Positions 1,064 to 52,200 of a DNA stretch of 64,000 nt are shown in pieces; position 1 is the stretch's first letter, and each line of letters begins with the position of its first letter. The DNA is from Blasia pusilla (taxonomy: Eukaryota), in NCBI GenBank assembly GCA_050084515.1, contig CM114271.1, positions 29,946,001-30,010,000 on the forward strand, given 5' to 3'. A model generated the notes under the pieces. The model saw nothing but the letters and a program-made list of their open reading frames with translations, was not told where the DNA came from and ran no database searches. A program made the translations under genes and the position numbers.

Positions 1064-1339
1064 ATAGGTTGGGAAGAGCCAAAAGGCTCAAACCCTAAAA
1101 ATAGCCCTTCCCTTGGTAACCTGCGCGCACAGGTTACCAGGGGCAGGTGACCTGGTCAACAAGTCACCCGACTGTAAAAGACCTCAACATGAAAGTTGTC
1201 AGAAACAACGTTCCTGACGCAATGGACCTATCCTCAACCTCATCCGACACTATGGGACAAAGTTACACTCAAGATAGTCCGCTGGCTCCTACGCCCTATC
1301 CACGATAGATCTCGGCCTATCGGCTACTCAGATGTGACA
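1064..1339 (-). repeat. Truncated second LTR copy (U3-like part only, stops at the TATA box)
   Basis: About 98% identical to 9930-10205; joins directly to the unrelated RT fragment at 1063. Confidence 0.9.
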
Positions 1340-1555
1340 GTTGTCGTGCGCATACATATCGCTACACAACATACATCGCTCATCACATCTACACCACACA
1401 ACACTGATCTTCCCCACACACGGGTCGATCCACACATGTACAAAAATCAACTCATACATATATATGGAGATCACTCAACCGCCCCCCTAGCTGGCAGTTG
1501 GATCCCCCCAACTCCAGATAGAAAATATCACATCTCTCTGACATGACCTACTACC

Positions 1556-1710
1556 CTATACACATCTCGGACACATCCATCGTCCCGTGGGAACCACATC
1601 AAGAGGGGGGGGGTCAGACATGACATATGCCACCCTCGAGAACAACCATCATATACCAACATGGTGGCTGCACCCCTCGCAGATCCGCACGACATACACC
1701 TCAAGCATGC
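1556..1710 (-). CDS. PHD finger at the polyprotein C-terminus
   Basis: CMSC...MLVYDGCSRGWHMSCLTPPL, then after a shift in the G-run at about 1605-1613 DVVPTGRWMCPRCV*; stop at 1556-1558. Confidence 0.88.
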
Positions 1711-2760
1711 AAGTACTACAGCCAAGCTCGGATCCACCGTCCCATCTACGTTCGGAAGATGACATGGCGCACAATTGCGCACATGATCCTTCCAAACCAT
1801 ACCATCACGTCCCTCCAACATGAGGACTCCGGTCGGTAATACCTCGCGTAGGATCGTACGCCCTGCAGTGACATCTAGCGTCGTGGGTTCCGCCTGCTGT
1901 AAATACACGTAATCTCCAGGATGAAACCTCCTAATCCCTGGACGATAACCTCCTCCACGAATGGTTGCGTACCTCAATGTATCTCTATGCTGGGCAATAG
2001 CTAAGTTCTCAAAGGCCATAGGCATAACTCTACGAAAAACTTCTGCCCTCTGAGAACATGCTTGCACCCACACATTTGGATCATCAAGATCTAACACCTC
2101 CGCCATGTCACGTCGAATCGCTGCAGGTAAATCTGGCTCTCTCCCAAAGAGCAAAAAGTACGGTGAAAATGACGCCAAGGATGCCTACCAACTAAAGCGA
2201 TAACCCATAGCCAACCATGGCAAGCTGTGAGGTCCCACTCCCTCAATCGCCCCCCTTTGCAAGCCATACTTGCAGATCCTCTCTTCACCGTCTGTACCAC
2301 TCTCTCCGCCAATCCATCCGCCTCGGGATGATCTCGGGCGTGGTGCGGTGATCTATCGGCCCCTGATCACACAAGGCCTGAAACTCTCCCGAACTGAACT
2401 CGGTACTGGACGGTCAACACCTCATTTGGTGCACCAAAGTAACTAAGCACACGATCTAGAAATGCATAAGTTGTTCCCTTGCTCGCCTTGTCTGGTAGTG
2501 CCACCAACTCTATCCACTTGGAGAAATGCTCCACCATGACCAACACGTACCTATGATGACGCCCTGTCAATGGCAAAGGTCCCGCAAAGTCTAAACTCCA
2601 CCGATAACCTAAACCCATAATCGGCAAAGGATGTAACTGCGGAGTGGGAGCATTGAAGGATGCTCGCAATCTGTCACATACCATACATCTGGCCACAAAC
2701 AGCTGTACCCCAGTATGCATGCCGTGCCACCAATACTTGAACATGGAGTAAGTTGTAAGT
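1710..2760 (-). CDS. DDE integrase core and C-terminal region (frameshifted)
   Basis: CMVC, WSLDFAGPLP, VMVEHFSKW, AERVVQTVK, SPYFLLFGREP, FHPGDYVYL. Confidence 0.93.
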
Positions 2761-4514
2761 ACGCTTTACTCCGAAATGTCCCAACTCCTCATGGGCATGT
2801 CGCACTACACGTGCTCGCTGGGAAGGATGAGGTACCACTCGTATCCTACCATCTCCCCATATCCACAAAATGTGAGTCCGCTCCCACCTGAACCTCTTGG
2901 CTCTCTGTAGGATCCGATCCCACTCCCTAGCACTCACTGTACTCGCAATGACACCAGTGCGGAAGAAGTCCACAACCTCCACGTCGTCATGGATATCACG
3001 ACCACATGTCGCCTCCTCACTAATCTCCGGATCCAAAGACTCATCATCCAATCCCACCACTGGAGTCATCACCTGTGGCTGACTTGCCATAGTCAACCAA
3101 CAAAGATAGGCAGATGCATGCCAACCGGGCACCATCTCCTCATCACTCTCTCCGTGCCATCGAGCTCCCGTGACGTCTCTCTGACTCAGACATGGCTTAC
3201 GACTCAATCCATCCGCATCCTGGTTCATCCGACCTGGCCTATGAACCACCTCAAACTCATACTCCTGTAGTAATAGAGCCCACATGGCAAGCTTTCCCGT
3301 AAGCTTGTCCAACTCCATCAACCACCTCAACGGCTGATGATCAGTGATAAGTGTGAAAGGGTTGCCAAATAAATAGCACCTAAAATGTGCCACGGCCCAC
3401 ACTGCAGCCAAGCACTCTCCCTCGTAGGAGCTGTACTTCGCCTCTCCAATGTTGTTCGATCGACTCGCGTAAACGAACTCCCTCTCCTTGTCATCCCTCT
3501 GAGTAAGCACTGCTCCTAGACCCAACATGCTCCAATCCGTATGTAACTGGAATGGGCGACCCCTAACCGGTCTCTGTAAAATGGGTGAGGACATCAACCT
3601 GTCCTTGAGCTCCTGAAATGCTCGCTCCTGATCATCTCCCCACAACCACACTTGATCAAGTCTTGTCAACAAGGTCAAAGACTTTGCGATCGCACTAAAA
3701 CCCTTGACATACCGTCGATAGAAGTTCGCCAGTCCAAGAAATGCTCGGACTCGACTCACATCTATAGGGCGTGGAATCTGCGCAATAGCCTCTACCTTCG
3801 TCTGCTGAACGCCTAACCCACTTGGGTATATGGTGTGTCCCAAGTACTCAATCTGCTCCTGAAAGAATCTGCACTTGCCTGGATGTAACTTCAGTCCATG
3901 TAACTGCAATCGTCAAAACACCTCCTCCAAGTGTCGCTCATGCTCCTCAACCGTGGAACTGAAGATAAGAATATCATCTATGTAACATCGTACAAAATCC
4001 AAGCCAGACAAAATCCTATCCATCACTCTCTGAAACTCCGCAGGCGCGTTCTTCAACCCAAATGGTAAGAACCGCCATTGATACAAGCAATCTCTCCGGA
4101 ACCGATCTATCCCCTAGAATCTTTGTCTTCTCCTGTCCTCCAACTTTGATAGGAAGGATGATGATAGCCAAGACGGAGATCTAAATCTGAAGATCTTTGC
4201 ATGCCCTACCGCATCAAAGATCTCCTCAGGAGTAGGCATGGCATACCGATCCGACCTCGTCTGTCGGTTGATAGGACGGTAATCTCGACACATCCGCCTA
4301 TCCGTCCAATTGCCATACATATCCTTCTTTTCCGGCATGACTGTGGCAGATGCATACTCCCTATGTGATAACTCCACAAGTCCTGACTCCTGCTCTGAAT
4401 CAAGGCTCGTTCCATATCAGAATACCTGTAGGGTCGACGAAAGATCGGCGTATCACTAGCCAACTCAATCCGTATCCGGGACCCTTCAAAGATACCCAAG
4501 TCTCTCATAATCAA
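2760..4514 (-). CDS. pol: Reverse transcriptase, RNase H and integrase zinc-binding start (frameshifted)
   Basis: RMCRDYRPIN, YAMPTPEEIFD, CYIDDILIFS (about 3960-3990), IEYLGH, LHTDWS, TDHQPL, NQDADGLSR, HEELGHFG. Confidence 0.95.
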
Positions 4515-4894
4515 GGCAAAACAACCGACATGCCCTCTCGAAACCTATGAACTGCCGTCGCTCTCCTCCTATCAACTTGAGACCTATCATAGGCTCCCAA
4601 GTCTCCATCGTGACCTCACTCGGAGAGGCGCAACCTCGGCTTTGGTTGCTATGTAGCAACCCTAGCCACCTCCGCATAATGACCACTCCACTCGACCTCC
4701 TACACCATGCTCCACATCCGAAAAATGAACATGTGCTACTCTAGCCGCCTTTCGCACTCTCTGCTCGAACGATGTCCAGAAGTCCATGGGTGCCTATCTC
4801 TCCTCGTCTCGCCTGACCAATGCTGTCATGCAGACCTTGTAGGCAGTGGTCCAACTCGTGGACGTGACGGCATGGATGACACTCGCATCCGTCT

Positions 4895-5860
4895 CTACTC
4901 AGCCATACCTAGGCTGACTATCCATATGAGACAGTTGAGGTCCATCGCCAGCCCCAACACCTGTCTCCGTGATGCCTCAGTCATCCCTGGCACCGCCGTA
5001 GTACCGGTAGTGAACCCCATGGCGCGCTCGCGCTCATCTGCTATAGGCTCCTCCAATACTCCGGTCACCTCATCCCAAATCATGCCTGGCCCTCCCTGAT
5101 GAAAGGCATGGGATGCTGGGAAGCTCACCAACGTAGGTAAGGTTGCCCTCAACTCCCCCACCCTATTGGTCGTGGCCAACGGTGGTCTATCATCGCGTGT
5201 CACCACCTGAGATCGACGCCCTGAGTCCAAAATAGCATCCACCGTGAGATGTGGTGCTCTCGGACTCGTGTAGGCTCGACTCAAGTACTCTCGATGGTAT
5301 CAGGTTCGTCCACCACAATCGTGGACGATGGGCACGTGACCCAACTCTCGGTGCATCTAACAACACAGCCGGTCCTAACCAGGACCTCACCTAATGTACA
5401 CTCGTCATCACACGTGCACGAGTATCTCCCAACAATGGCACGTTCTCCAAAATGTACGCTGGAGAACATATCTGACTCTGCTGCAAGTGTCGTACTACTC
5501 GCAGCATCTCCCAAAACATCCCTGACCTCGGATCCTGCAATCCTAATCCTCGGCCAGCTGATGAATGACCCTGACATGGCCATCCAGAAATCACCAAATG
5601 AATGGTGCCAACTCTATCCAGATCTTGCGCCCCCACCAAAGATATGTCGGCGGGTAGCGTATGCTGGTATCCCCGTACTGCAGATACCGACAACAACTCA
5701 TGATACCTCTGGACCAATCTCGCCACATGACGTAATGATACTCGCCGCGCGGTCTCATCTCTCTCCACATAAAGGTACTGATGCACCCGTATGCCTGCCT
5801 GCAATATGGCCCCCAATCCGGTGCTAATCCCTCCGAAGAGATCTAACACCCTAACACCCT
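4895..5860 (-). CDS. C5 cytosine DNA methyltransferase catalytic domain (DNMT3-like), split over three ORFs by frameshifts
   Basis: Motif I VLDLFGGISTG, II YVERD, IV VISGWPCQGHS, VI ILENV (ORF 5391-6185); VIII AHRPRLWWTN (5190-5390); IX ERERAMGF and X RRQVLGLAMD (4895-5284). Confidence 0.93.
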
Positions 5861-6209
5861 CCTCTGGGCACTGCCACACAACAGGTGTGGTATCTAGTGG
5901 GGTCATCGTCTCCACTCCAAGAGCCCGATCGCCACGTGACACTCGCTGCTCGGGATAAAAACATGACTCACGCCTTTGCCTCACGAGGTCGTTGGCACTC
6001 CTCTGTAGCTCTCGAGTCGTACCCCATAATGGTGAAGAGGCATCGCTAACATGGGAAGAGACACCCGCCATGGCCTGTCTCTCCGTGGGACTATCCGCTA
6101 CTGGGACATCCTTCGCATGTGCGTTCCCCTCCAACAACTCTCTTGGCCAGCTAACACTACCTGTGAAAGCCGCCAACGTGGTCACAGATTCGCCTCGTGA
6201 TCGACCACC

Positions 6210-7232
6210 TCATCCCGCAAACTGCACGGGTAACTTACTCATCCGACCGTCACCTGACCGCCATCTTGACCGATAAGCAACGGTCTCCTCCCAGAAGTCA
6301 AGGATGAATCCTAGGGGATATAACACTGTACTCCCCACCAACACATCGTACGACTCAATTGGTGTCGTAATCGCACGTGTGCGCACCATAGCACTATCCG
6401 TCGCATGCTCTGGCTGGACTCTCACAACAATCTCCTGTTGAGTCATATACTGAGTGGGTGATACGCCCCCAATCGAGGTCTGTATCTGGAAGGGACAAGG
6501 CTCAATGTCGGCCTTCCGTAACCCCAACGCTAAACACGCTGCCTTCCCTAACATCAAGGGTTGCGCTCCCAAATCAAGTAGGACGCGCTGTGGGTGGTAT
6601 ACTGTCCCCGTCGGACTAACCAAGCAAAATACTCCAGCTCGGTTATCCATTAACACTACTCCAGGTGTCACCACTGCTTGCTCTATGGCCGGTCGAGCTG
6701 GTATATCTACCAACTTTGCCGCCGCCGCATGCCATGACTCTGTGGGGAACGTCCCAAGCAGCGGCTCTGAGGGCAAGTCCACCACCTCCTCAACTACCTC
6801 TGAACAAGAAACAGTCATCTCTCCACGCTCACACAACGTGGCGGCCAACCGGAACACCTCAGCTGGTCCAACTCCCAACGTCGCCAACTCTAAGGCGGAA
6901 AATAGTGGAGTCTGACTCACTCTAGTGGCCACCTCCAATACTATAGTCGACATTGACTCCACTCGAGCCGGCATAGGAGTTGTCACTCCAACTCCTCGTG
7001 ACGTTGACGTAGGTGCCTGAATTGTAGGCACCGCTGGTCGTCGAGGCACCATCGATGGTGTGTGTAGTGCCTCCGACAATGTGACCGACTGTGGAACCCT
7101 GGCCTGCCGCCCATCGGTCCCCTCTGGTGGGTCAATCTCAACTCCACCTCTCGATGGCTCGGTGCCTCTCAGCAGACCCCGAGTCACCATCGCATTTGCC
7201 TCAACCTGGGCTGCACTACACATGAATCCCAT
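6210..7232 (-). CDS. Retroviral-type aspartic protease region of the polyprotein
   Basis: VLLDLGAQPLML (D-x-G active-site motif, DLG rather than DS/TG) and YDVLVGS motif in ORF 6210-7232. Confidence 0.8.
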   Translation of the reverse strand: MGFMCSAAQVEANAMVTRGLLRGTEPSRGGVEIDPPEGTDGRQARVPQSVTLSEALHTPSMVPRRPAVPTIQAPTSTSRGVGVTTPMPARVESMSTIVLEVATRVSQTPLFSALELATLGVGPAEVFRLAATLCERGEMTVSCSEVVEEVVDLPSEPLLGTFPTESWHAAAAKLVDIPARPAIEQAVVTPGVVLMDNRAGVFCLVSPTGTVYHPQRVLLDLGAQPLMLGKAACLALGLRKADIEPCPFQIQTSIGGVSPTQYMTQQEIVVRVQPEHATDSAMVRTRAITTPIESYDVLVGSTVLYPLGFILDFWEETVAYRSRWRSGDGRMSKLPVQFAG

Positions 7233-7289
7233 ATTGAGAGATCCTCACCCGGGTCAGGGTAAGAGGTACAAACCGAGTCACACTAGCGC

Positions 7290-8860
7290 TCGCGACTCCG
7301 TGCCTTCCCTAAGCCTGCATCATCGTCATGGCAGCAATCCTGCTCCAAGCGATCGATGCGTGAGAGAAGGGCCGGCTCTGGTGCTCTGCTCCATCTCCCT
7401 CCGGCTGGTGGTGGTCCTCTACCACCACGCCCAGGAAGAACTCCCCGACCTCCTCCAGACGACCGCCCCAAGCCCTCGGCCTACCCTGGGACGTGCCCCT
7501 CGGCGAAGGTCAAAACATCTATCCCTAGTGTGACCATATCTGTGGCAATGGTCACACTGGTGTGTGGGTGGGGCCATCCTCGTGGCTCTGCGCAATCGAG
7601 GCGCTTTGGTGGTCCCCTCCCATCTTGTGGGCGATCTCTCTGCCTATGGGCCCCTCCACACGCCCAACAAGACCACATCGGTCCCTATTTGGGCAACATA
7701 TGTAGGTGCGGTCGTTGCCTCATAGGCTCACGGTACCCGCCCGCTCTCTAGGCACACTGCCCGCTCCGTGGTATCTGGTGCTCATTTGTGGCACCGGTGG
7801 GGTCACCGCCGCTCGTGGACCCGTCGACTCTCGAGAAAATCCAGCGGTCACTACCGCTCCTCACTCATGTTGAGCTCAATACGCTCAGAAAACTCAAAGA
7901 CCACCTTCAATGCGGGCTTCATTTGTGTGAATCAAGACCGCATCTCGGACTCTCCTCCGTAGTTCTCGGTCCGAACCCGTACCAATCTTTGGACGATCGC
8001 ACCTCGATCCACCCAAACGTAGCAATGATCAGCCTCCTCATGCGTGTGAATGCCTCTTTCGGACTCTCACCCGATCGTCGCTGAAAATCTGTCAGAGACT
8101 CTTGACTTGTCGGTGCGTATGCCCTAGTAGCTCTTCCCCAACCTGTTGGAAGAACTCCCTTTGTGGGGTTGGCGGGTGGCCCTCTACCACCAGAGGTCTC
8201 GCCACATCGCTTTGTGTCCCGCCCTCCTCTCCATCTAGTCTCCGGGATGTTGGTGTGGGTCTCTCTCCTCTCACAATCCCATCATATGCCTCGCGACCAC
8301 TAGTGGACACATACCCTGGAGCCCAATACATCCTCCAGGCATCGATCTCTACTGAATATAGTGATCAGAACTCCATGTAGTCATCCATCGGAGGACCCTC
8401 CAAGTGCTCGAACAACCCCTTCCATGCCATGAAAGGGTTGAACCGTGTCGGGGTCCGTATCTCCTGGAAGTCGCACCATGTGTCAAACTCTTGGATGAAA
8501 TCATCTAAGTCGATGGTGCCCACTACACCCGAGAAACGACGCATGCCCCGATGGCCCATGTCGTCCATCTCCTGCCAAGTACTACTGTCTCTGTCGGTGA
8601 TCGCCGTCACGGACCGGTGTCGATGATAACGATCCGATCCACGGATGGATGTTGAGGGAGCTCCTCACTGGTAACCCCTCGGTATCTCACTCCACTCCGT
8701 GTCACACCACTACCACTGCTCGCACTACCCCGTTCTTCCGAACCCAGGAAGAACGCCGTGATGACAAACCCTGTCTCACCCGCTCAAGCACTCAGACTCA
8801 CCGAGAGTCTCCCACACGCCTCACTAGCTCACCTATGCTAACGTCAATCCCATGATGACA
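7290..8860 (-). pseudogene. gag: Gag (frameshifted) with CCHC zinc knuckle(s); true start uncertain, possibly near 9120 or further upstream
   Basis: FSGVVGTIDLDDFIQEFDTWC (ORF 8365-8610); CDHCHRYGHTRDRC knuckle at about 7516-7557 (my translation); second degenerate knuckle CWACGGAH at about 7640-7670. Confidence 0.8.
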
Positions 8861-9713
8861 TACTCGGCCTCACGCACGCTCAACACTCGGGCTCACCATG
8901 AGCCTCCCAACTGACTCACCTAACCTAGCGACACACTCTCGGGTCATACACGCGACCCCTACTCGGCAACCGCCGTATATCCACCAACATGCTACACATG
9001 AAAATAATCTACACTCGTCACCATCAGTGCACCCATCTAGCACCAACTACTACCCGATACCCATCACTCTCAATCATACACGACAAGTGCGGGAAAAGGG
9101 ACTCGAATGGGTAACCTGATCACGCCCTCCAACCTGCTATACCGTCAATATGCACTCCTCCACATGATATGACAATCTCTGCCACATAACACTCCCCTCG
9201 ACCAACACGTCGATCCTCCCGTCAACAGATGCGGACAACCCGTCGGCATCATGCACACTGTCCCTCCAGCGTAAACTCTCGCAACGCCCTATGCGCGCCT
9301 CAAAAACATCATGTCACGCCCGTTGTCTAACTTGTCGATCACTCAGCACGTCGACATCCTCCTTGCCCTCACGTTGCCCATGCGCACCGCGTTCGCCGGA
9401 CCGACCTCGTCCGTCCTACCACGTTGGAGAGGGGGGGGGGAAGACTTGGACCGCGGCCCTGTAAGACCCAAACCTGCCCGTTCCTTCTCTCTTGACGCCT
9501 TCACTTGCGTACACCCGACGCCCCACCACACGCTACACTCGGCTGCTGTCCCCCAACAATCCGCACCAGCAAAATCTGAGAAAAATGGACAGCGCTTCCG
9601 CCCACGGCCTTCCGAATAGAAAAAATGACACACAACGTCACACACACGTCTCCAGGGGCTCCCGACCAAGGCAACTCGCTTGCCTACCGCAAACTCTTAA
9701 TTCCCACCCCGAC

Positions 9714-9723
9714 ATCTTTCTCA
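9714..9723 (-). promoter_or_regulatory. Putative self-priming PBS (TGAGAAAGAT), complementary to the predicted transcript 5' end
   Basis: Lies immediately after the LTR-terminal CA; 9713-9726 and 9888-9901 form a perfect 14-bp inverted repeat; conserved at 16505-16518 / 16677-16688. Confidence 0.65.
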
Positions 9724-10205
9724 TGTAAAAATAAAGAGTAGTAAAAACGGCACACCTGGCCTAAAACTCCACTCCTCAATCTACATCGGCATATCGAGCC
9801 TCGTCCACCCTGTGCTATCAAGGAATCCGGACACTAGCACCCTAGTCCTAGCTCACACACATATAAGGGAGGTGCTCCAACGGCCCAACATGAGAAAGAT
9901 GGCTTAGGAAAGCTATCTTCCTCTCTTATATAGGTTGGGAAGAGCCAAAAGGCTCAAACCCAAAAAATAGCCCTTCCCTTGGTAACCTGCGTGCACAGGT
10001 TACCAGGGGCAGGTGACCTGGTCAACAAGTCACCCGGTTGTAAAAGACCTCAACATGAAAGTTGTCACAAACGACGTTCCTGACGCAATGGACCTATCCT
10101 CAACCTCATCCGACACTATGGGACAAAGTTACACTCAAGATAGTCCGCTGGCTCCTACGCCCTATCCACGATAGATCTCGGCCTATCGGCTACTCAGATG
10201 TGACA
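9724..10205 (-). repeat. 5' LTR of subfamily A (about 482 bp, TGTCAC...TTTTTACA)
   Basis: Starts TGT at 10205 and ends ACA at 9724 on - strand; contains TATATAA (9926-9932); same boundaries in the older copy at 16516-16830. Confidence 0.8.
9900..9932 (-). promoter_or_regulatory. LTR core promoter: TATA box and predicted TSS (C|A at 9901/9900)
   Basis: TATATAA at 9932-9926 on - strand, 32 nt upstream of a pyrimidine-purine CA initiator. Confidence 0.6.
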
Positions 10206-13200
10206 AGCGCCTAGAGATGTGTGTGTGAATTTTTTTGGTGTGTTTTTTGTTCAGAAGACCATAAGAGGTAGCGTTGCCCATTTTTCATGGGTTTTTCTCA
10301 TAGTAGAATTGTGTAGGGCAGAAGCAAGGTATCTGAGAATTTTGCTCCGGTGTAGCACCGAGGAATCATCATGGAAAGAGTGGTATGTGTCAAGAGATAA
10401 GAGGAAGAGTTTTAGGGCTTGCAGCCGCCCAAAAAGGGGGCTATCAAGTAAAGGGCGGTTGAACTAGGTTTATGGCGGCTAGGTCAGCTAGAGTTTGGTA
10501 TCTGAACATAATTGGTTCATGTCACAAGAATTTTTTAGGTCGCGCATGATACGAATGTCGTGTTAGGTCAACTCAGAGTTGTCCGCGTAAGGAAGAAGAG
10601 GAAACGGAAAACACTTAGTTGTCATAGCCATGGGTTGCCTTGCGCGGGTGCGGCGGACCTATGAAGACGATATACAAAAATCAAAAGGCATAAGGACTTG
10701 TGCAAGGGGACGGAAACCAAGCGGATGGGAAAGGAGAAGGCGTGGTCACGGCTGCATATGAAGCCGTGTCGTGGTCTAGGTGTGGCAGGCCATGCATAGG
10801 GTAATGTGTAAATTGCGGGAAGGGGAGTTCATGGCAGGACAACCAAGAGCGTAGATGCGATATAGCGGCAAAGGCAGGGTTTGTTCACTCATGGCTAAAG
10901 CAAGTTGACGGAGGTATAAGGGAGACGGGGACGTCGCGTAACGGCGTCTAAGAAAGTGGGAGCATTGAAGGGATGAGTATCTGCATAGGGCCATACGCTC
11001 GAAGAGAGGGGGGTGCAGATAAAGTTGCAACAAAGGTTTGCAAGTCGGACGAAGACATAAACAAGAGAGAGGTAGTGTTGGTTGCAGGCTCGAGAGAGTA
11101 CAGGCTCAGATAGAAGGAAGCCAAGGGGTGCTCCTGCATAGGGATGTGGGCTGCAGTGTTGATGGAGGTAGCTACGACATGTGTGAGAGCCATGTTGTGT
11201 GCATAAGCAGTTGGAAGTAGTAAGAGGGGCTCCATGTGGTGAGGCAATGAATACTTAGTTTGTAGAGCAATACATTGTGAACGGTTGATATAGTTAGGCA
11301 TTGGACGTAGTACGTTGGTGATTGGAGAGCTTCTTGGTTAGGGGGGGTTTCAATTTTCCCCATAGTAGTAGGAGGTGTTGCGATGAGGGACGTCCAATTG
11401 GGATCTTGAGTTCAACGATAAAGTATTCATTTGCTAGTTTTTTGCCGATTGGTGTTGAGAGGGGTGATGTATATTTCCAAATTGTGATGGAGTGCTACAG
11501 GTGGAGACACATACACTGATGTTGATAGATAGTCCACATCTATTTATGGGAGGTTTGAAGTGTGCTCGAGGAGATTCTCCGGCTAGGGAAGCTGCCACAC
11601 CACATGGAGTAGTGAGTGTTGACCATGTAATAGAGTGATGGGGGGCGTGTTAACATTATCCATTCAAATCCCTTTTCTCACATTTGTCTTGTGTCATTGG
11701 GGGTGTTGGGTATCAAGTAGAGCTTAGGCTAGATGGATGTAGTGCTGGTGACGGGGTGTATGTGTAGCATATTTGTGGTTATAGGGCGGTTGTCCAACTA
11801 GGGGTTGCGTGCATGATCCGAGAGGGAGTATCCATAGCGTAGGTGAGCTAGTTCGGGAGGCTCAGGGTGAGCTGAGTGTTGAGTGTGCGTGAGGCCTGGT
11901 GTGTTATCACGGGATCGATATTAGCTTAAGTGAGTTGGTATGGAGTGTTGGAGACTCTTGGGGAGTTTGAGTGCTTGAGCGTGTAAGGCAGGATTGTCAT
12001 CACGACATTCTTCTACAATTCGGAAGAATGGGATAGTTGGAGCAGTGGTAGCGATGGTAATTGGATTGCTATGATAGGACATATGGTCTGGTGACAAGAT
12101 TGCAGATGGAGACAATGTCATGTACATGTGGAGGGTGATGGATGATATGAGCCATTGGGGCATGCATCGTTCTTGGATGTGGTAGGCACCATCAACTTAG
12201 ATGATTTCATCCAAGAGTTTGACACATGGTGTGACCTCCAAAAGATACGAGCCCTTATGTTGTTAAAGCCTTTCATGGCTTGGAAGGGTTTGTTTCAACA
12301 CTAAGAGGGTCTTGCAATGGATGATTATATGGAGTTTGGGTCTTTACACTTAGTAGAGATCAATGCATGGAGGATGTATTGGGCTCCCGTATATATATCC
12401 ACATATGAGGTGTATCAAGGGAGAGTAAGAGAGGGTAGACCTACACCATCAACCCAGAAACTAGATGGAGATGATGGCAATGATGGTGGCAAGGTGGCAA
12501 AGATCTCAAGTGCTACAGCACCACCTTCTTTCAGTCCTACAGTGGACTTGTTTCAACTGTTGGGGAGGACCTACCTAGGCCTATGGACCGACAAGCTTAA
12601 GAGTCTACATGATTTCTAGTGGAGATCGGCTGAGAGGCATTCATGCGCATGCAATGATTGATCATTGCCACACATGGAGTGATTGAGGCACAATCAGAGC
12701 AGTATTGGTATAGGGTTCTGGAACGGGAATTACAAAGGAGAGTATGAGATGCAATTTTATTTCCCACAGCCCACATTGAAGGTGGTCTTTGAATTAATTG
12801 AGTAGATTGAGCTCAACATGAGTGAGGAGCAGGTCGTTACCATAGGACTTTCTCGAGAGTCAACGAGTCCACAAGTAGTAGCAGCCCCTTAGGTGCCCCA
12901 GTACCACGGGAGCCGGCCGGTGTGCTTAGAGAGTATCATGAGCCCATGAGACAATGACCCATGCGTACTAATATCCGTTGCCTCGCACGGATCGAAGATG
13001 GCTTGTTGGACGTGTGCTGGATCCCATAGGCTGAGGGAATACCCACAACATGGCAAAGGATCGAGGGAACCTATGATCTCTTATAAGCCACGTAAGATGG
13101 GCCCACCACAATTGCATTGTGACGATTTTCACCGATATGTTTTGATGTTCGTTGAGAGCTACGTCGATAAGTAGGTTGAGGGCCACAAGGTAAGAGAGTT

Positions 13201-14440
13201 GGTGGAGATCAAGGAGTTGAGTATTGGGTGGTAGAGTTCCATCCTCAGTCAAAGGAGATGGAGGACGTGCACCCGATGAAGTGCTCCTCACTTGCATCGA
13301 TATGTTGAAGAAAAGGATTGCTGCCATGACAATGTTGCAACTAGTGACAAATACGGAGCCGAGACAAGCTACTTTGGCTCCATTCTCTACATCATATCAA
13401 GATACGAGGGAGGATTATACATATTTGAGGTTCATATGCAGTGCAGCTCAGGTAGAGGCTGATGTGGTGGTGACTCGGTGCTACAAGAGTGATGGAGCCA
13501 CATAGAGGTAGGGTTGAAATAGACCCACAAGAGGGAACCGATGGGCAACACGCTAGGATTCCCCAATCATTTGTGTAGTCAGAGATACAACATACACCAT
13601 CGATGGTGTCCATAGAGTGTCCACGTGTGAGTAAGGTGCGTCGACGTCACGAGGAGTTGGAGAGAAGACTCCTATTGCAGCTCGAGTGGAGCCAATGTCG
13701 ACCAAGTTGTTGGAAATGCCTACTAGGATGATTCAAGCACAATTATTTTCCGCCATGGAGTTGGTGTCAATAGGAGTTAGACCATTGGAGATATTTCAGC
13801 TAGCTACCATGTTGTGTGAGCATGGAAAGGTGATTTCCTCTCATTCAGAGGTGGTGGACATATCCTCGGAGCAAGTGCTTGGGGCGCCTCCCACTCACTC
13901 ATGGAAGGTTGCGATGAAGAAGTTGGTAGATATATCAGCTACGCCAACGATAGAGCGAGCTATGGTGACACCTGATGTGGTGTTCTTGGACAACCAAGTT
14001 GGATTTTTTTGTTTGGTTAGTCCCACGGGTAAAATGTATCATCACACTACGTCCAACTTGATTTCGGACGTATCCCTTGATGTTAAGGAAGGCTGCATGT
14101 TTGGCGTTAGGGTTACATAAAGGCGACATTGAGCCTATTCTATTGGGGGCGTGTTATCCACATAATACATGACTCAACAAGAGATAGTTGTCAAGCTCCA
14201 ATCTGAGCACTATTTAAGCATGGGCTAGATAGTACACACTTGTGCGATTACAATACCAACAGAGTCGTATGATGTATTAGTAGGAAGTACAATGTTGTAT
14301 CCCTTGGTTTCAACCTTGATTTTTGTTAGAAGACAATTTATAGTGGTGTTCGACCTCGTGAGGATACAGTGATCACGTTGGCAACATCCACAAGTGGTGT
14401 TAGCTGGCCAAAAGAGTTGTTGGAGGGAAACCCACATGCA
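10206..14440 (+). mobile_element. Older, inverted relative of subfamily A (leader, gag, protease); 5'-truncated and ending just before the DNMT
   Basis: 10206-10300 matches the reverse complement of 9580-9660; ORF 12317-12619 (MDDYMEF...WRMYWAP) and ORF 13686-14120 align to the gag/protease region of the young copy. Confidence 0.88.
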
Positions 14441-17035: not shown

Positions 17036-17049
17036 TAGCACCGTCAATG

Positions 17050-18020
17050 TTGTCATTCCTTCAGGATCTCCCAACACTTGCACCCACTGAACTATCTCAT
17101 CTATCTCCAGCTAGAGGTATCGATGTATCTGTACATCGTCCTATAACATTGGAGCTAACCTCTATGTTGATCCCTCCAAAGATCTCTGGTACTCTTGCAC
17201 CCTCCTCCCACCACTGCCACTCCACATGTGTGGTATCCAAAGATATCAAGTCTCCACTCCAAGACCACAACCCTCACTTGACTTTGTCTCCTCTGAGAAA
17301 CAGGCATTGCTCCACACCTGCCTCACAAGCTCGTTTGCATTCCTCTGAAAAATGATGGTCTCCACATCATGGGAAGAGACAGCCATCCTCGGATGTCTCT
17401 CCAATGTCGACCATATTATTGGAGATGGCCACTAGGATGAGCTAGGCTCCATTACTTTCCACCATGGACTTGGTAGCGATGGGAGTTGGACCAATATAGG
17501 TCTTCTGACTAGCAACCAGGCTGTGTGGGTGTTGAGAGGCAACTGCCTCTCCACACCCAAGAAGTTGGTGGACCTGCCCTCGCAATAGGTACTTGGTACT
17601 TCCTCCACTAAGTCATGATAGGTCACAACGGCTAAGTTGGCGGATATGCCACCTAGGCTTGTGATAGTGCAAGCCGTGATGACACTAGGTGTAGTTTTGT
17701 TTGATAATTGGACTAGAGTCTTTTGCTTGGTTAATCCCTACGGTACAATACATCATGCATGGTAGGTTCTACTTGATTAAGGAGCGCATCCCTTGATGTT
17801 AGGGAAGGCGGTGTGTTTAGAATAAGGATTATAGAAAGGTGACATTGATGCTCATCCCTTTCAAATATATACCTCTATTGGGAGCATATAATCCGCGCAA
17901 TACATGAATCTACAAGAGTTAGTAGTCAAACTCTAGCCAGAGCATGCGTTAGATGGTGCGATAGAGTGTACTCGTGCAATAACGACACCGGTAGAGTTGT
18001 ATGGCATAGTTGGTAGGGAG
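17050..18020. mobile_element. Rearranged fragments of the DNMT-Gypsy family: DNMT motif I region (-, about 17050-17415) and protease region (+, about 17420-18020)
   Basis: gatccctccaaagatct...cactgccactccacatgtgtggtatc matches about 5825-5895; ccttgatgttagggaaggc matches the PLMLGKA coding sequence in the opposite orientation. Confidence 0.7.
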
Positions 18021-23500: not shown

Positions 23501-24343
23501 CTTGCCCCATTCAACCCAATTGATATCCTCACATGGTGTTGTAACACTAATGAGCAAACATGAGCAAACACGAAACATCATAAATCTAGTGGAGTCATAT
23601 TACCATGGAAATGTTTCAAAGGCTTATGAGTGTGACATGAGTTACAGAAGCGAGATACGCGCCTTGATGGATGTCTTGGATAATTATGGTTATGACTTGG
23701 AAGAGCATAATCCAACTTCGGATAGACCTTCAGAAGAGTTGAAGTCCCAAAAAAGTTAAAATCCAAGGAACTTGGAATCTAGCTTTGAACTTAATTGAGT
23801 ATTTGGGGTTTTCCATATTTAAGGTCATAATTGTTAGTCCCAATATTTATTTGGGATAAATAATGTAGCGTTGGAAAGCTTGTGAGGAGATAACTCTAAA
23901 CACTAAAGATGTGGAAAGATAAAGAAGTAGAAGTATTGAAATGGGCCCAAAAATGTTGGAATGATAGTTTGGGTTGAAGGCTACTATGTTGTTCGCATAC
24001 ACATGATTGGTACACAACATACATCGTTGTCACCAAACATACACGATCCTATACTAACTCATGGAATATACACAATGAGACGGGAAGTACCAAAATATCT
24101 CCAATCGCCCCCCTAGGTGGTGATTAGGTCCCTCTCACTCCAGGTAGCCATCTGTCACTACCTACCATGACACACATCTCTCGGAGGCTAAGAGAAAAAA
24201 TGTGAGGTGCTCATGTGGCCCCATCGTTAGTTGCCTTCTTGTCATCCATGTCACAAACACAAGTCGGAATCTAGAACTATCTACTCTATGTACATTTGAG
24301 ACACATCCATTGTCCCCGAGGAACCCTAGTGAGAGGTGATGTC

Positions 24344-24883
24344 CATGGTTGCACATGGAAAAAGTCCGTATCTACGGACTTACGAGCCCGCATCCAAGCT
24401 CGCACCCGAGCCCACCCGCATCCCATACCCGTTGTGTGGCTGGCAGCTCGGCCTTCTGAAGCCCACACCTGCCCACGCCCGCCTTGTCGGAGCCCGCACG
24501 TGCCCGCCCTAGCCGGCGCTTGCCCGCCCAGAGCTCGCCCTAGCTTGCGCCTAATCAGCCTTGAGCTGATTGCCCGTGCTAGCCCGCGCTAGCCTGCACA
24601 TGCCGGCCTCGATCCCGCACGTTCTTTCCTGGAGCCCGCGTCTGCCCTCCCTAGCCCGCACCCGATAAGTCTTGAGACCGCACTTGCCCGCCTTGAGCTT
24701 GCACCTACCTGCCCACATCCTGCTCCCAATCATCCCGGAGCGTGCGCTAGCCCACCCTAACCGCCCTCTACACCACGTAACGAGTGCCGGCTTTGTCAGC
24801 CCGGGTCTAGGTGGCCGACTCAGAGGCGGGCTTGCGTGTGGGGCGGGGTACGGGCTCGACAGGTCTGTTTTTGTGCAACCTTG
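24344..24883. mobile_element. 540-bp non-autonomous hAT-like DNA transposon inserted in the PHD-coding sequence
   Basis: TIRs CATGGTTGCACA / TGTGCAACCTTG; 8-bp TSD GTGATGTC / GTGGTGTC; the empty site is visible in the paralog at about 49805. Confidence 0.88.
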
Positions 24884-27800
24884 GTGGTGTCACACATGCC
24901 ACATGCCATCCTCTCGAACATCCATCATAGACTAGCATAGTGTCTGCACCACAGGCAGAACCACACAACATACATCGCAAACCTGCAGGAACTACTACTA
25001 AGCTCGGATCAACTGTACCATCAATGTTAGGAAGGTGACATGGCACACATGCAATTACGCACATGGTCCTTCCAAACCATACCATTGCATCCCTCCAATA
25101 AGAGGACACCACATGGCAAAACCTCATGCACTCTCAAGATAATGCACCTTGCAGTGACATCCAATCTCGTGGGTACCGTCTGCTGCAAGTAGACACAGTC
25201 TCATCGAATAGTCGCATACCTCAACATATCCCCATGTTGTGCAATCGCCAAGTTCTCAAATGCCATGGGTATCACTCAGCAAAACAACTCAGGCCTCTCA
25301 AAACATGTTCGCATGCATACATCACGGTCATCAAGATTCAACACCTGACCAACATCTCGACAAATGGCAGCAAGTAAATCCGGCTCTCGGCCATAAAGCA
25401 GCAAGTACGGTGAGAAAGAGGCTAAGGATGCCTGCCAGCTGAATCTGTACCCCATTGCCAACCACAACAACAGGAGGTCCCAATCTCCTCGGTCATGTCT
25501 CTACAAGCAATACTTGCGTAATCCTCTCTTCACTGTCTGCACAACCCTATATGCTAGTCCATCCGCCTTAGGGTGATATCCTGAAGTGGTGGGGTGGTTG
25601 ATCGACGCCTCATCACACAAGTCTTGAAACTCCCTGCATTTGTACCCTGGTCTGTCAACACCTCAGCTAGTCTGCTGCAATGACTAAAAAATTGACTAGG
25701 AAGGCATACGCTACAACCTCACCTTTGTCACACAATGCAACCAACTCTATCCAGTCCGAGAAGTGGTTGACCATTACCAACACATAAGAACTATGAAGCT
25801 CCGACAAAGGGTAAGGTCATGCAAAATCCAAACTCCATCTATAACCTAAACCCTTGATCGAAAGTGGACGCAAAATTATACTCGAAGCATTGAACAATTC
25901 CCAGACCCGATCACATACCATGCACCTGGCAAAGTGTTGAACGTCAGTCAGCATGCCTTGCTACCAATACTATATCTAGAGCAAATTGTACGTCCACTTC
26001 ACTCCAAAATGACCCAAATCCTCGTGGGCATGGCGCACCAATCGTGCTCTCTATGAAGGATGAGGCACTACACGTACTCTACCATCCTCCCAAACTTGCA
26101 ACACATGTGTCTCCTCTCACCAAAAACGTCTGGCTTGCTGTAGGATTTTATCCCACTCTCTAGCACCCACTATGCTCGTGAGGCTTCCAATACGTAGGTA
26201 CTCCAAAACTTCTCCATCGTCATGAAAATCTCTGCCACATGTCGTCTCCTCACCGGCCTTTGTATCTACGGACTCTCCATCAGACCTTGCCATCAAAGTC
26301 TCCGCAATCTGGCTCTCGATAGCCAACAAGCCCAAATAGGCTTCCGCGTGCCATCCTGGCACCAACTCCTCATCACTCTCTCTATGCCAACGAGCTCCAA
26401 TTGCATTTCGTTGGCTCAGACATGGGTTACGACTTAAACCGTCTGCATCCTAGTTGAGCATCCTAGGTCTATGTGCCACGTGGAAGTCATACTCCTGCAA
26501 TAAAAAATCCCACCTCCCAAGCTTCCCTGTAAGCTTTTCAAACTCCATCAACCACTTTAGTGGTTGATAATCAGTTATGATGGTAAAGGGGTTGCCAAAT
26601 AGATAACACCTGAAATATGCGACAACCCATACTACAGCCAAGCACCCCTCTCATATGACCTATACTTTGACTATGTAGTGTTGTTCGAGCGACTAGCGTA
26701 AGCCACCACAATCTCTCTATCCTCATTGTCATGATGGATGAGCGTGGCCCCAAGCCCCAACATGCTCCAATTTGTATGCAACTGGAAAGGACACCCCTTG
26801 ATCGGTCTCCTCAATATGGGCGCGGATGTCAATCTGTCCTTGAGTAGCTGAAATGCTCTCTCCTATTTTTCCATCTAGTGCAACTCTTGATCCACCTTTG
26901 TTAGCAAGGTTACCGGCTTTGAAATTGAACTAAAACCCTTGATGTACCGTTGATAGAAGTTCGCCAATCCCATGAATGCATGAACTCAACTCACATTTGT
27001 AGGGCGTGGAATGCGTGAAATAGCCTCAAACTTTATTTCCTACACTCAAAGGCCCATTGGATATATTATATAACCCAAGTACTCAATCTAGTCATAGTAG
27101 AACTTGCACTTGCCTGGATGTAGGTTCAACCCATGTAATTGCAATCGTTGAAACTCCTCTTCTAGATGTCGCTCATGCTCCTCAATCGTGGCGCTAAAGA
27201 CTACGAAGTCATCCATATAACACCTAGCAAAATCCAGACCTACCAAGATCCTTTCCATGACCTTGTAAAACTCAGCGAGGGTATTCTCTTACCCAAATGG
27301 TAAGAAACGCCACTGGTACAATCCTTCTTGTAAGGATCGATAACCGAAAATACGGTCTTCTGCTTGTTCTCGAATTTGATAGGCAGCTCATGGTATCCGG
27401 CTCAAAGATGTAACAAATTGAAGACCTTTAGATGCTCAATAACATCAAAGATCTCCTCATGGGTGGGCATGGCATACCTATCCTACTTCGTGTACCGATT
27501 GATAGCTCGGTAATCTCCACACATCCGCCTATCCATCTAGTCGTGATGCAGATTCTTTTTGGCAGATGCATGACCATGGTAGATGCATAATCTCCATGGG
27601 ACATCTCCAATAGTCATGCTCCAACCAAGTCTTGGATCCTACCCTGAATCAGAGCCCTCTCCATATCAATGTACCCGTAGGATCTTCAGAAGATCGATGT
27701 GTCACTCGACAACTCAATGCGGATATTAGGGATCTACATTAAGTTGTCGAGTGACACGCCGATCTTGATTTCAATACGTTGAAGGGTCCAACATTGGACC

Positions 27801-28369
27801 CTTTACCCTACCCAACCCTAAACCCTAAACTTGCGGTGCCATTATGGATCTTGATCTTGATTTGGGTACGTTGAAGAGTCAAACGTTGGACCCTTCAACG
27901 TACCCAAATCATGCATGCTAAATGCAAAAAAACTCCTATAACTCCTAAGGAATAGATATATTTTACCCCGCTCTTAGGGCCCGTATCTGGCTCCCAAGTC
28001 TCCATTGTGACTACGGCAGGACTCTCTGGCGTGTTTATCGTTTTGCTATGGTGGAATAACGTCTCAGACAATAGAACTTGGCTGCTCCCCTCCAGCCAAC
28101 TGCAAACTCTAATCTCCTCCACATGCAGTACCCAAAACCACGCTCCATGTTGTGGCTATTATCTCCCGCCATACCTCCAAAACATCCCAAGAAGTCCAAG
28201 GGTGTCTCTCTTGATCATCCCAAGTGTGTTGATATCCTCACGTCTCGCCCTCAGCCCCAACCTCAACCTTCAAGGTAGGCATGGGGTTCACCAACGTAAC
28301 ACTTGTAACCTGTCGCAATCTCAAACGACGTTGCTAAGCTACTCCTAAGCTAGAAATCCATGTAAATCA

Positions 28370-36920: not shown

Positions 36921-37399
36921 CAATTTGAGAGTGGATATTGAGGGGGTTCCAAGTACGTTGTTGGGGCTTGCCACAAACATGTATCACGATCTATTAGGAT
37001 ATTCTTAGTTTTTTTGTCAAGGTGTTTTGACCGGCCATGATGTTATATAACCATGGTGTTGAGGACCTTAAATGTTGAGGGCCATACGTTGACGCCAAGT
37101 TTGGATGGCTACAATAGTAAAGTTACTAGCAAGACATGTTGTAGAGACGTCATGGTTCTTCTCATAGTGGTATTATTGAAAAATAAGCATGGTACTTTAT
37201 GCTTTATTAGTCTTAAATGTAGAGTTTATTTTCCATAAAATGTCTTGTTGGATTCAATAGTCCAACCCTTGATTTTTGGGGAAAGCAGATTTTATGTTTG
37301 CAGTTAGGGTTGATATTGAGTGAGATCCATTACATATTTACATGTCACTAGATAGAGCTAGTACAACATAGTTTATCACTCAATATGAGATAATAAAAA

Positions 37400-49205: not shown

Positions 49206-52200
49206 TGTCGTACGCATACACATCGCTACACAACACACATCGGTGTCACCGAACACACATACAAACACGCACGATCCCATGCTAACTAATGGCATCCAAA
49301 CAACAAGAAAAGAAGTACTAAAATATCTCCAATAAATTAAGATCCAATCTCTCTATACACCATCTCACACCATAGCTCTCAAAGGTGTGCACTCTCTCTC
49401 TCATGTGAAACCAAACCCACTCTTCTAATGAGAGGCTTAGGTTACACTCACAAGGCAAGGGAGCATGTCTTCCACTACTCACGAAGGCGCTCTACTAGAT
49501 CTCACCAATCTATCCTAAAAGACATGACAATTGTCGTGCGTATACACATCATCCCTACACAACATACATCGCTGTCACTGAACACACACGCACGATCCCA
49601 TGCTAACTCATGGCACCCAAACAACGAGACAAGAAGTACTACATCTCTAGGACGCTAAGAGCATAAAGGCTGGGTGCTCATGTGGGCCCATCGTTAGTCG
49701 CCTTCCTATCATCCATGTCACAGAAAAATTCGGAATCAAAACCTACCTAGTATCTCCTCTATGTACATCTGGGACACATCCATCATCCCCGAGGAATCTT
49801 AGTGAGAGGTGGCGTCAAATATGCCATATGCCAACCTCTCGAACATCCATCATAGACTATCATCGTGGCCGCACCACGAGCAAAACTTGCAAGCTTGCAG
49901 GAACTATTGTTGAGCTCGGATCTACTGTACCATCAATGTTAGGAAAGAGACATGGCGCACAATTACGCACATGGTCCTTCCATACCATACCATCGCGTCC
50001 CTCCAGCAAGAGAACACCGGATGGCTAAACGTCACGCACTCTTCGGATAGTGCGCCCTACAATCACATCCAACGTCGTCGATTCCGTCTGCAGCAAGTAG
50101 ACATAATCTCCCTGATGAATCCTCTGGATAGTTGGTTGATAACCACCACCCCGAATAGTTGAATACCTCAACATATCCCGACGTTGCGCAATCGCCAAGT
50201 TCTCAAACGCCATGGGCATCACTCTCCAAAATAACTCAGCCCTCTGAGAACATGCTCGCATCCATACATCTGGGTCATCAAGGTCTAGCACCTCACCATC
50301 ATCTCGACGAATGGCCGTGGGTAGATCTGGCTCTCGGTCATAAAGTAGCAAGTACGGTGACAAAGACGCTAAGGATGCCTGCCTGCTGAATTTGTATCCC
50401 ATCGCCAACTGGAAATCTCAACCCCAACTCGGTTGTGGAGAAAACTCCTCCAATTAGCAAGTCATACTCCTCCCGTACTAACGCTACTCAAAACTCCTCG
50501 ATGGACAGTGCGGTTCCAACAGAACAACAAGGCCCTCGATGGTGGGATGCGGCACTCGGCGGCATACCCTCCTCAATCAACAATAAACCCACACTGTGCT
50601 CCACAATGACGGTGCGGCTCCGCGATCAAGACGGTGCGGTGCGGCAACCAGCGGTACGACTCGGAAATCGGCCGTGCGTTGCAGCTACGGGCGTCACGGC
50701 ACGATACTCGATCTTCGTTGAGCAGATACCAATCACAAAATAACAGCATGAAATCAAAACTCAAACACCATAACCGGAGATCATCTACCATTACTGGTTG
50801 ATGTTGAAACGATTCCAACGAAACGGTGCGGCGTTGCAGGCGGTACCGAACGGCACGACCCTTGATGGTGGGATGCGGAACTTGGCGGCATACCCTCCTC
50901 AAAAAAAATAAACCCACACTTTGCTCCACAATGACCGTGCGGCTCCGCGATCGAGACGGTGTGGTACGGCCACGAGCGGCACGACGCGGAAATCAGCGGC
51001 GCGTTGCGGCTACGGGCGTCACGGCACGGTACTCGATCGTCGTCGAGCGGCTACCAATCACAACATAGCAGCATGAAATCAAAACTCTAACACCATAACC
51101 AGAGGTCATCTACCATTACTTGTTGATGACAAAACTGCGATGAAGGTGGCGGCCAAAACAAAGTACGTGGTGACGATGCAAGTCAGAGAATCAACGAACT
51201 TCGTGGAAGACCCTCCACTCCATGGCAACCAAAGGGTGGACAACAAACGGTGGACCATTGACGGTGCCAGTTGACCGTTGACGATGACTATGACGGCAAC
51301 GGCCGCCGCCGCCGGCGTGGCAGCTGGTTTAGGGTTTGAACAATTTAACCCTAAAAATTGCCTAGCAATGGCAGTTTTGGAAGATTGACCATAAATTTTT
51401 ACTTGCAGCTCCAAATTGCGCATTTTTTTATTGCATAACGTGCACAGCTTCACGATCTACAACGCTGTCAAAAAATATTTGGAATTGGACGTTCCAATAA
51501 AAACTGACATGGACTGTTGTAAAGCCCAATGTTTCTTTGTCCTATACAAAATGTGGGAGCGCTTCCGCGCTGATTTCTCCCAAAAAAAATGTAAAACCTG
51601 TAAAAATACAAATCAGAAAGCTACATGGTGCTCCTGATAGCAGCGGCATGGGGCAACCGGCCCCCATAATCAATCTCTATCAGAAATTGGGCAGTACTTT
51701 TGCGCGCCACTCTTCCACACGAAAAATCAGAAAATGCAAAGAATAATCAAAGCAGCCCTTGCTCCAGTGAGCACTCCCATAAGCCGCTGAACGGAGAACA
51801 CGGTCCCCAACCTGTAAAAACAACGAGTGATCGACAAGCTCCCCCATGAAGCTCTTTCATTCTCTCTTTGTAAAGTAAGATCCAATCTCTTTGTACACCA
51901 TCTCACACCATAGCTCTCAAAGGTGTGCACTCTCTCTCTCTCATGTCAAACCAAACCCACTCTTCTAATGAGAGGCTTGGGTTACACTCACAAGGCAAGG
52001 GACCATATCTCCGCCGCCTTATGCCAAGAGGTTCAACAAAGAGTGAATGAGCTCTCAAGCTTTCTCTCTCTCCTTGAGGTATACCCTTCCCCTCTTCAAG
52101 CTCTCTCCATGGTAATCTATTCTCCCAAGTCACCTCCTTGGCTCTTGACCTGATGTAGGAGGTCAAGGGCCACTTACCAAAAATATTAAGTTGATAATAT

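Follow-up and report, generated by a model that had tools for sequence, protein, structure and literature searches.

We analysed a 64,000-bp stretch of the Blasia pusilla genome (contig CM114271.1, positions 29,946,001 to 30,010,000; called the window here) and found that it holds decayed copies of a large Ty3/gypsy retrotransposon family of the KnitGypsy-Dnmt3 kind. Elements of this family carry a DNMT3-like cytosine methyltransferase (DNMT) and a PHD finger, and are laid out as A1 - ORF1 (Gag-protease-DNMT3-like) - TAG-CAR-YYA - ORF2 (reverse transcriptase-RNase H-integrase-PHD) - B1-A2-B2, where the ORFs are open reading frames and A and B are split direct repeats. The initial annotation of the window had described a histone reader and a DNA writer in one polyprotein. 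This description does not hold, since a family-wide in-frame TAG separates Gag, protease and DNMT from the enzymes of ORF2. The explanation that we favour, with a probability of roughly 0.6, is a two-ORF element expressed by readthrough of this stop, with the DNMT made at the level of Gag and an integrase-borne PHD finger that would bind the H3 tail.

The amber codon between the methyltransferase and the reverse transcriptase

The DNMT and the reverse transcriptase (RT) share an ORF in none of the four copies that could be scored. An in-frame TAG CAA is invariant in 12 of 12 aligned copies and is followed by CCA in 11 of them. Across the genome (390 Mb searched, in 26 contigs), 849 of 915 matches to the junction have TAG, and the other codons among the 100 matches listed are single-base variants. 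Subfamily 3, which is 79% identical in RT DNA, reads TAG CAA CCA in 24 of 30 loci. UAG followed by CARYYA is an established plant readthrough signal (PMC4132726), the tobacco mosaic virus (TMV) signal gives 6-10% readthrough in stable Arabidopsis lines (PMC2754532), and the hexamer found here is the same as that of TMV (PMC4132726, PMC2754532). As background, CARYYA follows 84 of 40,769 stop triplets.

The junction is also found in loci from outside this genome. RT was present in 81 of 82 such loci, and in 27 the first upstream stop lies 38-48 codons before the RT anchor. Nine of these 27 read TAG-CARYYA, coming from about three lineages and so not independent, ten have CAACCC, one has an apparently decayed CAG CCA, and seven come from a clade with Gln at this place in its protein, so that their stops are ordinary decay. 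An intact ORF2 of 1047 amino acids (aa) starts straight after the TAG in outside elements L149, L151 and L152 (hexamers CAATCA, CAGTTA and CAATCA, respectively), and the ratio of nonsynonymous to synonymous substitution (dN/dS) downstream of the stop is 0.01-0.06 in intact outside elements. Five CARYYA hexamers occur across lineages (CAACCA, CAATCA, CAACTA, CAGTTA and CAGCCA). Their second codon takes all four YYA forms (Pro, Ser, Leu, Leu; three amino acids) while neighbouring residues diverge, which argues for constraint at the nucleotide level. The best 17 of 53 DNMT homologues, including Marchantia Mp4g09160, end at the equivalent place, 93-162 aa past motif X. The in-frame UAG, the CAR-YYA hexamer and the continuous downstream ORF of TMV-type (type I) readthrough are all present, with exceptions in subfamily 2, and these sequence features suggest that ORF2 is very probably a product of programmed amber readthrough. 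We ruled out a -1 frameshift between the DNMT and RT regions, as L068 and L079, which have no private indels, are in frame with a single conserved TAG. The record that holds L149 is titled as an uncultured cyanobacterium assembly and is most likely mis-binned eukaryotic DNA.

Several observations weigh against readthrough as the general rule. Subfamily 2, 74% identical in RT DNA, has the canonical TAG CAG CCA in only 8 of 30 loci, with TAG CGA CCA in 7 and a difference at the stop, mostly an indel, in the other 15, in a sample biased toward a CGA-type query; it also has an AUG two codons past the stop. The ten CAACCC junctions among the 27 outside loci are one mismatch off the consensus. RNA depth in two stranded runs from a related organism, tied to the host by species label only, amounts to about 15-65 in ORF2 and 0.2-14 in ORF1, and its step near the stop is also compatible with an ORF2-only transcript. 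The junction variants of subfamily 2 (L081-L110) are mostly 1-base indels and fall mostly in CGA-type copies; this lineage may have lost readthrough or adopted re-initiation, or the variants may be assembly errors.

These data bear on whether ORF2 could dispense with readthrough, through an internal promoter, removal of the stop by splicing or re-initiation at an AUG close by, which we consider rather unlikely. The rise in RNA depth would fit a promoter, and Tca2 has a minor one at its junction (PMC2194720). However, the 2191 and 2344 reads on the element, mainly from the sense strand, are mostly less than 95% alike, with loose ends at 4475 that match subfamily 2, and the step may therefore reflect cross-mapping to the conserved pol part. 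Marchantia gene models span the site via predicted introns, but they join at differing places, and reads lie on both sides of the stop while none of the 15 listed joints (of 20) spans the TAG. Re-initiation has candidate AUGs in subfamily 2, as noted, and about 14 codons past the stop in subfamilies 1 and 3. In L149, L151 and L160, by contrast, no AUG could serve: ORF2 has its first Met at residue 117, and conserved RT-region sequence is already present at residue 78, so re-initiation could not yield the whole ORF2. None of these routes explains the selection on a degenerate CARYYA hexamer.

The TAG could also descend from one nonsense mutation in a founder, such as a deamination, if the family is non-autonomous and mobilised in trans. 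Every copy examined in this genome is decayed, and a TAG shared through decay does exist elsewhere, in the clade of L202-L222, at a codon that is Gln in P0136. But the stop lies at the homologous place in three subfamilies that are 74-79% identical in RT DNA, and it is present in otherwise intact outside elements that differ by a synonymous divergence (dS) of about 0.8-2.6 and are under the downstream constraint given above. This explanation is largely refuted and we regard it as highly improbable. Programmed readthrough of the amber codon accounts best for the junction.

The integrase PHD finger and its candidate ligand

The initial annotation was correct in placing a PHD finger at the integrase C-terminus, and this finger is a real terminal part of the integrase of the family. 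In copy 1 its first zinc-ligand Cys is encoded at 1696-1698, a Gly-Trp-His at 1627-1635 and the stop at 1556-1558. Gly rather than Trp does stand two residues before the His that is the fifth ligand in all three window copies. The annotated C4HC3 finger in every copy stands in part: each copy has PHD-like sequence, but none encodes a complete C4HC3. The third Cys is Tyr in all three, a frameshift in a C-run of copy 1 also puts the last two Cys out of frame, and copy 3 is broken by a frameshift, a stop and another Cys-to-Tyr change. The Tyr codon lies at 1651-1653, with equivalents near 24927 and 49850 in what are three different subfamilies, and is found in 0 of 30 family-1 genome copies; it is probably independent G-to-A decay that happens to coincide in the three copies.

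Better preserved copies exist elsewhere in the genome. Pfam PF00628 matches the window ORF over the first 32 of 47 positions (E 6e-4; 20.1 bits, cut-off 24), and matches intact genome copies over its full length (L037, E 5.9e-12; L061, E 1.1e-10). L061 has the H2C2 finger, the integrase core and the PHD in one natural ORF. A genome-wide search with a neutral PHD pattern gave 467 exact matches and 0 with the reversed pattern as control, and the finger is in register in 78 of the 100 matches listed, which rules out a programmed frameshift in the C-run. Twenty of 30 fetched genome copies encode a complete C4HC3, and 19 of these end one residue before the stop. The C4HC3 ligands, an Asp after the third Cys, a Pro and a Trp are invariant across 22 aligned proteins, and two pairs of intact relatives with computable dS give a dN/dS of 0.04-0.06 for the finger (dS near saturation), which shows purifying selection.

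We next consider what this finger may read. It is well supported from its sequence that it is not an H3K4me3 reader of the ING or BPTF type: among 59 distinct related PHDs the residue two before the His is Gly in 56, Phe in 2, Ala in 1 and Trp, the cage residue, in none, and neither ING nor BPTF occurs among the best 60 of 81 PDB sequence matches. The best matches in sequence and fold are KDM5A/B PHD1, BHC80, AIRE, ATXR5, BAZ2, DPF3, CHD4/5, UHRF1 and ORC1b, many of the PDB entries being titled as complexes with unmodified H3; the AlphaFold model used for the fold comparison has a mean predicted local distance difference test score of 79, and 81-93 across the finger. Aligned with KDM5A PHD1, the finger conserves D312, P331, G333 and W335, of which the first is essential for H3 R2 and the others form the A1 pocket in KDM5A (bioRxiv 715474). 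The A1 pocket (P-x-G-x-W) and the R2-binding Asp after the third Cys are thus present, the Asp in 57 of 59 related PHDs. The finger therefore likely reads the free H3 N-terminus, as judged from these residues. A predicted complex of the L037 PHD with residues 1-31 of the genome's own H3 scored 0.31 where the mark was 0.34, and was not used as evidence either way.

The annotated role as an H3K4me0 reader fared less well. The lack of a K4me3 cage and the match to readers of unmodified H3 agree with it, but strict K4me0 specificity is doubtful because the K4-contacting acidic residues of KDM5A, BHC80 and AIRE are Ala here, both before Cys1 and before strand 1 in family 1. Part of this evidence counts against H3 binding as such: the equivalents of KDM5A D292, E305 and D315 are Ala, Ala and Ser (the first of these positions being set by counting back from Cys1), D292A and E305A each lower the affinity of KDM5A about 6-fold (bioRxiv 715474), and the PHD of this family is net basic (+2). 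Without those acidic residues H3 binding may be weak or lost. The finger might then no longer be a histone reader and serve a structural or a nucleic-acid- or protein-binding role in the intasome or particle. This would suit the loss of the acidic wall in the streptophyte-like clade, where the net charge is 0 to +3 versus -1 to -7 in most chlorophyte-like relatives, but it sits poorly with the retained A1 pocket and R2 Asp, and the UHRF1 PHD binds H3 mainly via R2, has no K4 Asp and tolerates K4me3 (PMC3214078). By analogy, such a UHRF1-like mode is possible for the PHD here, and we hold loss of the reader function to be unlikely. We keep to H3 binding: a finger on the mature integrase that lacks a K4me3 cage, probably engages the free N-terminus of H3 and discriminates weakly at K4.

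Proposed mechanism and insertion sites

In the mechanism that we propose, amber readthrough would yield the DNMT at Gag-like levels, with RT, integrase and PHD reaching a small fraction of this level. The particle would then take up many copies of the DNMT, which could methylate new cDNA. We give about even odds to such packaging and self-methylation, an idea of de Mendoza et al., 2018; a point against it is that the isolated KnitGypsy DNMT was inactive in yeast, a result that its authors call inconclusive (PMC5890265). The PHD would stay on the mature integrase and engage the H3 N-terminus through its A1 pocket and R2 aspartate. This binding could tether the intasome to nucleosomes and bias insertion away from H3K4me3 promoters, which we consider possible at somewhat less than even odds.

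Insertion sites were compared through the 3' flanks of 40 insertions and 40 evenly spaced sites. The heavy nesting that the initial annotation had found in line with insertion into silent chromatin has no significant counterpart in these flanks: 22 of 40 flanks and 16 of 40 control sites lie in known repeats (P=0.26), by a repeat library of only 0.94 Mb that is rich in the DNMT-gypsy family. Nor are the copies clustered along contig C1, where 80 of them are uniformly distributed (Kolmogorov-Smirnov P=0.96). Both results count against targeting. The flanks do have a lower observed/expected ratio of CHG (0.44 vs 0.80, P=0.004) and of CpG (0.50 vs 0.62, P=0.03) and a lower GC content (P=0.02). 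Such depletion is, however, expected for any old long terminal repeat (LTR) element through selection and methylation spreading, and in this one family it does not separate these from targeting. PHD-driven targeting to heterochromatin is unproven. Target duplications of 4 bp are present in both copies that have both ends available (L070 and L078), as in Phygy (Neumann 2019). The NCGN preference of Phygy was not found here, CG being central in 1 of 40 flanks, a count from which decay could hide some CG.

These data also bear on the proposal of the initial annotation that a strict H3K4me0 reader, comparable to the ADD domain of DNMT3 and part of one polyprotein with the DNMT, directs the latter as well as integration to silent chromatin. 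The absence of a cage Trp, the top fold matches to BHC80, AIRE and ATXR5 and the CHG-depleted flanks are in keeping with it, and DNMT and PHD do share one ORF in some relatives (P0075, P0128 and forms with the DNMT between RNase H and integrase). But in this family the conserved stop lies between the two domains, which even in a readthrough product would be ~1000 aa and likely protease sites apart; the K4-contacting acidic residues are missing, and pericentromeric clustering was not seen on C1. We find this proposal quite unlikely as a whole. Because the stop puts the DNMT at the end of ORF1 and the PHD at the end of ORF2, the DNMT is unlikely to be guided by the PHD, and such steering is improbable in this lineage. 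The earlier proposal was partly right about the reader and probably wrong about its coupling to the writer.

Element copies in the window

Copy 1 occupies window positions 1064-10205 on the minus strand, in the order A1 (479 bp), Gag-like part, protease, C5 methyltransferase, RT, RNase H, integrase, PHD, B1 (138 bp) and a truncated A2. Its features and those of the other two copies are given in Table 1.

Table 1. Features of the DNMT-bearing elements, in window coordinates.
Feature	Position	Strand	Remarks
PHD finger, integrase C-terminus, copy 1	1556..1698	-	six-frame translation and Pfam
Integrase (H2C2 zinc finger, core, SH3-like C-terminal part) and linker to PHD, decayed	1699..2830	-	bounds approximate
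Start of ORF2: RT, RNase H, spacer, decayed	2831..4642	-	bounds approximate
In-frame amber stop (4649-4651), then CAA CCA, a match to the CAR-YYA hexamer	4643..4651	-	family-wide
DNMT3-like C5 cytosine methyltransferase near the end of ORF1, decayed	4900..5860	-	bounds approximate; motifs I, IV PCQ, VI ENV, VIII, X
Aspartic protease in ORF1, upstream of DNMT	6290..6600	-	bounds approximate; weak Pfam protease matches in intact L151 ORF1
Gag-like part of ORF1, decayed; Cys/His knuckle in relatives	6601..8580	-	label inferred from position
5' terminal repeat A1, 479 bp, starts TG	9727..10205	-	
Internal repeat B1, 138 bp, of the split direct repeats A1...B1-A2-B2	1342..1479	-	RNA joint 1480/9727
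Repeat A2, truncated after 276 bp, 97.8% identical to A1; B2 lost	1064..1339	-	
PHD of copy 2 (divergent subfamily), split by ~550-bp insertion	24286..24974	-	
TAG CAA homologous to the copy 1 stop, between DNMT and RT of copy 2	28043..28048	-	
Decayed PHD of copy 3	49759..49891	-	

The SH3-like part of the integrase closes with a conserved CAPCH motif, and L151 ORF1 has no Pfam match to a Gag domain. The element combines DIRS-like split direct repeats with a DDE integrase, and B is repeated after A2 (B1-A2-B2) in 11 of the 12 other genome copies examined. At the B1|A2 junction (1340-1341), B1 ends in CA, two variable bases follow and A2 starts with TG, which resembles joined element ends and poses the question of how an element with a DDE integrase regenerates split repeats. 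The truncated A2 of copy 1 is joined to the RT of an unrelated Ty3/gypsy element, whose RT/RNase H fills positions 1-1068 (30-40% identical) with a short microhomology at the fusion. That copy 1 is nested in this element is not demonstrable, its 3' end being lost and no target-site duplication being left. The insertion in the copy 2 PHD (24336-24885) is a hAT-like miniature inverted-repeat transposable element whose 11-bp terminal inverted repeats agree at 10 of 11 positions; its 8-bp target duplication has one mismatch, and related sequence lies at 30470-31088. Further fragments of the DNMT-gypsy clade occur in both orientations at 11489-14439 (+), 16495-18022, 37182-38549, 48729-49069 and 52427-53041. 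No tRNA genes were found in the window.

Relatives, known systems and implications

The methyltransferase is DNMT3-related and is encoded as an intronless domain inside the Gypsy element. All 25 of its 25 PDB matches are DNMT3A/B/C, it matches PF00145, and its identity to Marchantia Mp4g09160 is 66%. In intact relatives purifying selection acts on it (dN/dS 0.07-0.11, dS near saturation; three misaligned DNMT rows involving L170 were left out, and dS was saturated in two pairs). Homologue searches found RT-RNase H-integrase-PHD relatives in Coleochaete scutata, Pleodorina starrii and other assemblies (23 matches) and DNMT-bearing polyproteins in Marchantia and Scenedesmus (53 and 4 matches). 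No protein named from K. nitens was among these 23, 53 and 4 matches, and no chromodomain (PF00385) was found in them or in 11 + 12 scanned proteins; the integrase C-terminus thus lacks the chromodomain that marks chromoviruses.

Three layouts occur among the relatives: a single ORF of protease, DNMT, RT, RNase H, integrase and PHD (P0075, P0128), a DNMT between RNase H and integrase (P0084, P0015, P0018, P0023, P0141, P0147, P0153, P0154), and two ORFs split by a stop after the DNMT. A quick RT/RNase H tree, rooted at its midpoint and built from 100 rows, none of them a reference chromovirus RT, puts the two-ORF elements in one 58-row group (Shimodaira-Hasegawa-like approximate likelihood ratio test 95) that includes the single-ORF P0010/P0075, and the remaining single-ORF forms outside it. 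The tree is compatible with a single gain of the stop and is not proof of it. Members of one clade (P0013, P0017 and P0096) keep the PHD and have a DNMT region that looks degenerate, with no Pfam DNMT match in P0096, which suggests that PHD and DNMT can be lost separately. Two distant relatives carry other domains, a G-patch in P0141 (1184-1223) and a peptidase S26 in P0023 (2179-2227).

Parts of this architecture are already in print, namely retrotransposon PHDs with a proposed targeting role, Gypsy-DNMT3 elements and elements with both a reader and a methyltransferase. KnitGypsy-Dnmt3 of Klebsormidium nitens shares the Gypsy domains, the intronless DNMT3-like domain in a polyprotein and the DIRS-like split repeats (A1...B-A2-B) (de Mendoza et al., 2018, PMC5890265). 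It was described from an alga, whereas the relatives found here extend to liverworts and this genome, and it has the DNMT in one ORF with RT and RNase H, whereas here TAG-CARYYA lies between them and the one-ORF arrangement is found just in relatives such as P0075 and P0128. The term 'PHD' occurs 0 times in the main text and the supplements examined of PMC5890265, of which Fig. 4c might show one. Similar accessory PHDs are encoded in the polyproteins of Chlamydomonas Gypsy-7a_cRei (bioRxiv 2022.06.16.496473) and, as PYGO-PHD fusions, of cnidarian retrotransposons (bioRxiv 2021.11.30.470311), and their proposed role is to avoid harmful insertions. The Gypsy-7a legend lists the PHD before the integrase and names no DNMT, whereas the PHD here follows the integrase at the extreme C-terminus, and it lacks the acidic wall. 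In chromoviruses (MAGGY, Physcomitrium RLG1) a chromatin reader likewise sits at the integrase C-terminus, but as a chromodomain, for which targeting has been demonstrated and not just proposed as here, and in elements with plain LTRs and not split repeats. REM1 and CR1-like long interspersed nuclear elements reportedly carry PHDs as well.

EpiLTRs / DAM-LTRs also bring a reader together with a DNA methyltransferase within a single LTR element, but with a chromodomain, a DAM and a DNMT sister to DNMT4, and their authors set them apart from streptophyte Gypsy-DNMT3 (bioRxiv 10.64898/2026.05.21.726589). A weak match to a D12 adenine methyltransferase follows the PHD in P0022 (838-871; E 0.002, below the cut-off) and may be compared with DAM-LTRs. 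In MuLV gag-pol, Tca2 and SIRE1 an in-frame stop likewise controls the stoichiometry of downstream enzymes (PMC2194720); there it follows Gag, whereas here it follows protease and DNMT, which places an enzyme cargo on the high-expression side. We found no report of readthrough in this Gypsy family or of a green-lineage-wide DNMT and PHD clade, in a search that most subscription papers and bioRxiv supplements lay outside, and to that extent both appear new.

The most far-reaching view, which we hold less likely than not, is of a green-lineage-wide Ty3/gypsy clade (from Scenedesmus and Pleodorina to Coleochaete, Marchantia and this genome) that has long carried a PHD, mostly with a DNMT3-like writer, and in which a leaky amber codon of the plant-virus type arose behind the DNMT in a single streptophyte branch. 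The DNMT may be a Gag-stoichiometric cargo that pre-methylates cDNA and the rare integrase-PHD may pick nucleosomes with unmodified H3, so that each new copy would already be silenced when it lands in chromatin away from promoters. The conserved leaky stop is a more novel and more testable result than the coupling of reader and writer. It is still debated why retrotransposons retain DNA methyltransferases of their own; a DNMT on the high-expression Gag side predicts an enzyme that is plentiful in particles and works on cDNA, not one that a reader guides to chromatin. Two-ORF elements of this kind are prone to mis-annotation as host DNMT genes or dead copies, and close relatives in Marchantia polymorpha (Mp4g09160) are annotated as hypothetical genes. 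This liverwort has genetics and chromatin maps, and readthrough, PHD binding and insertion bias are all testable in it.
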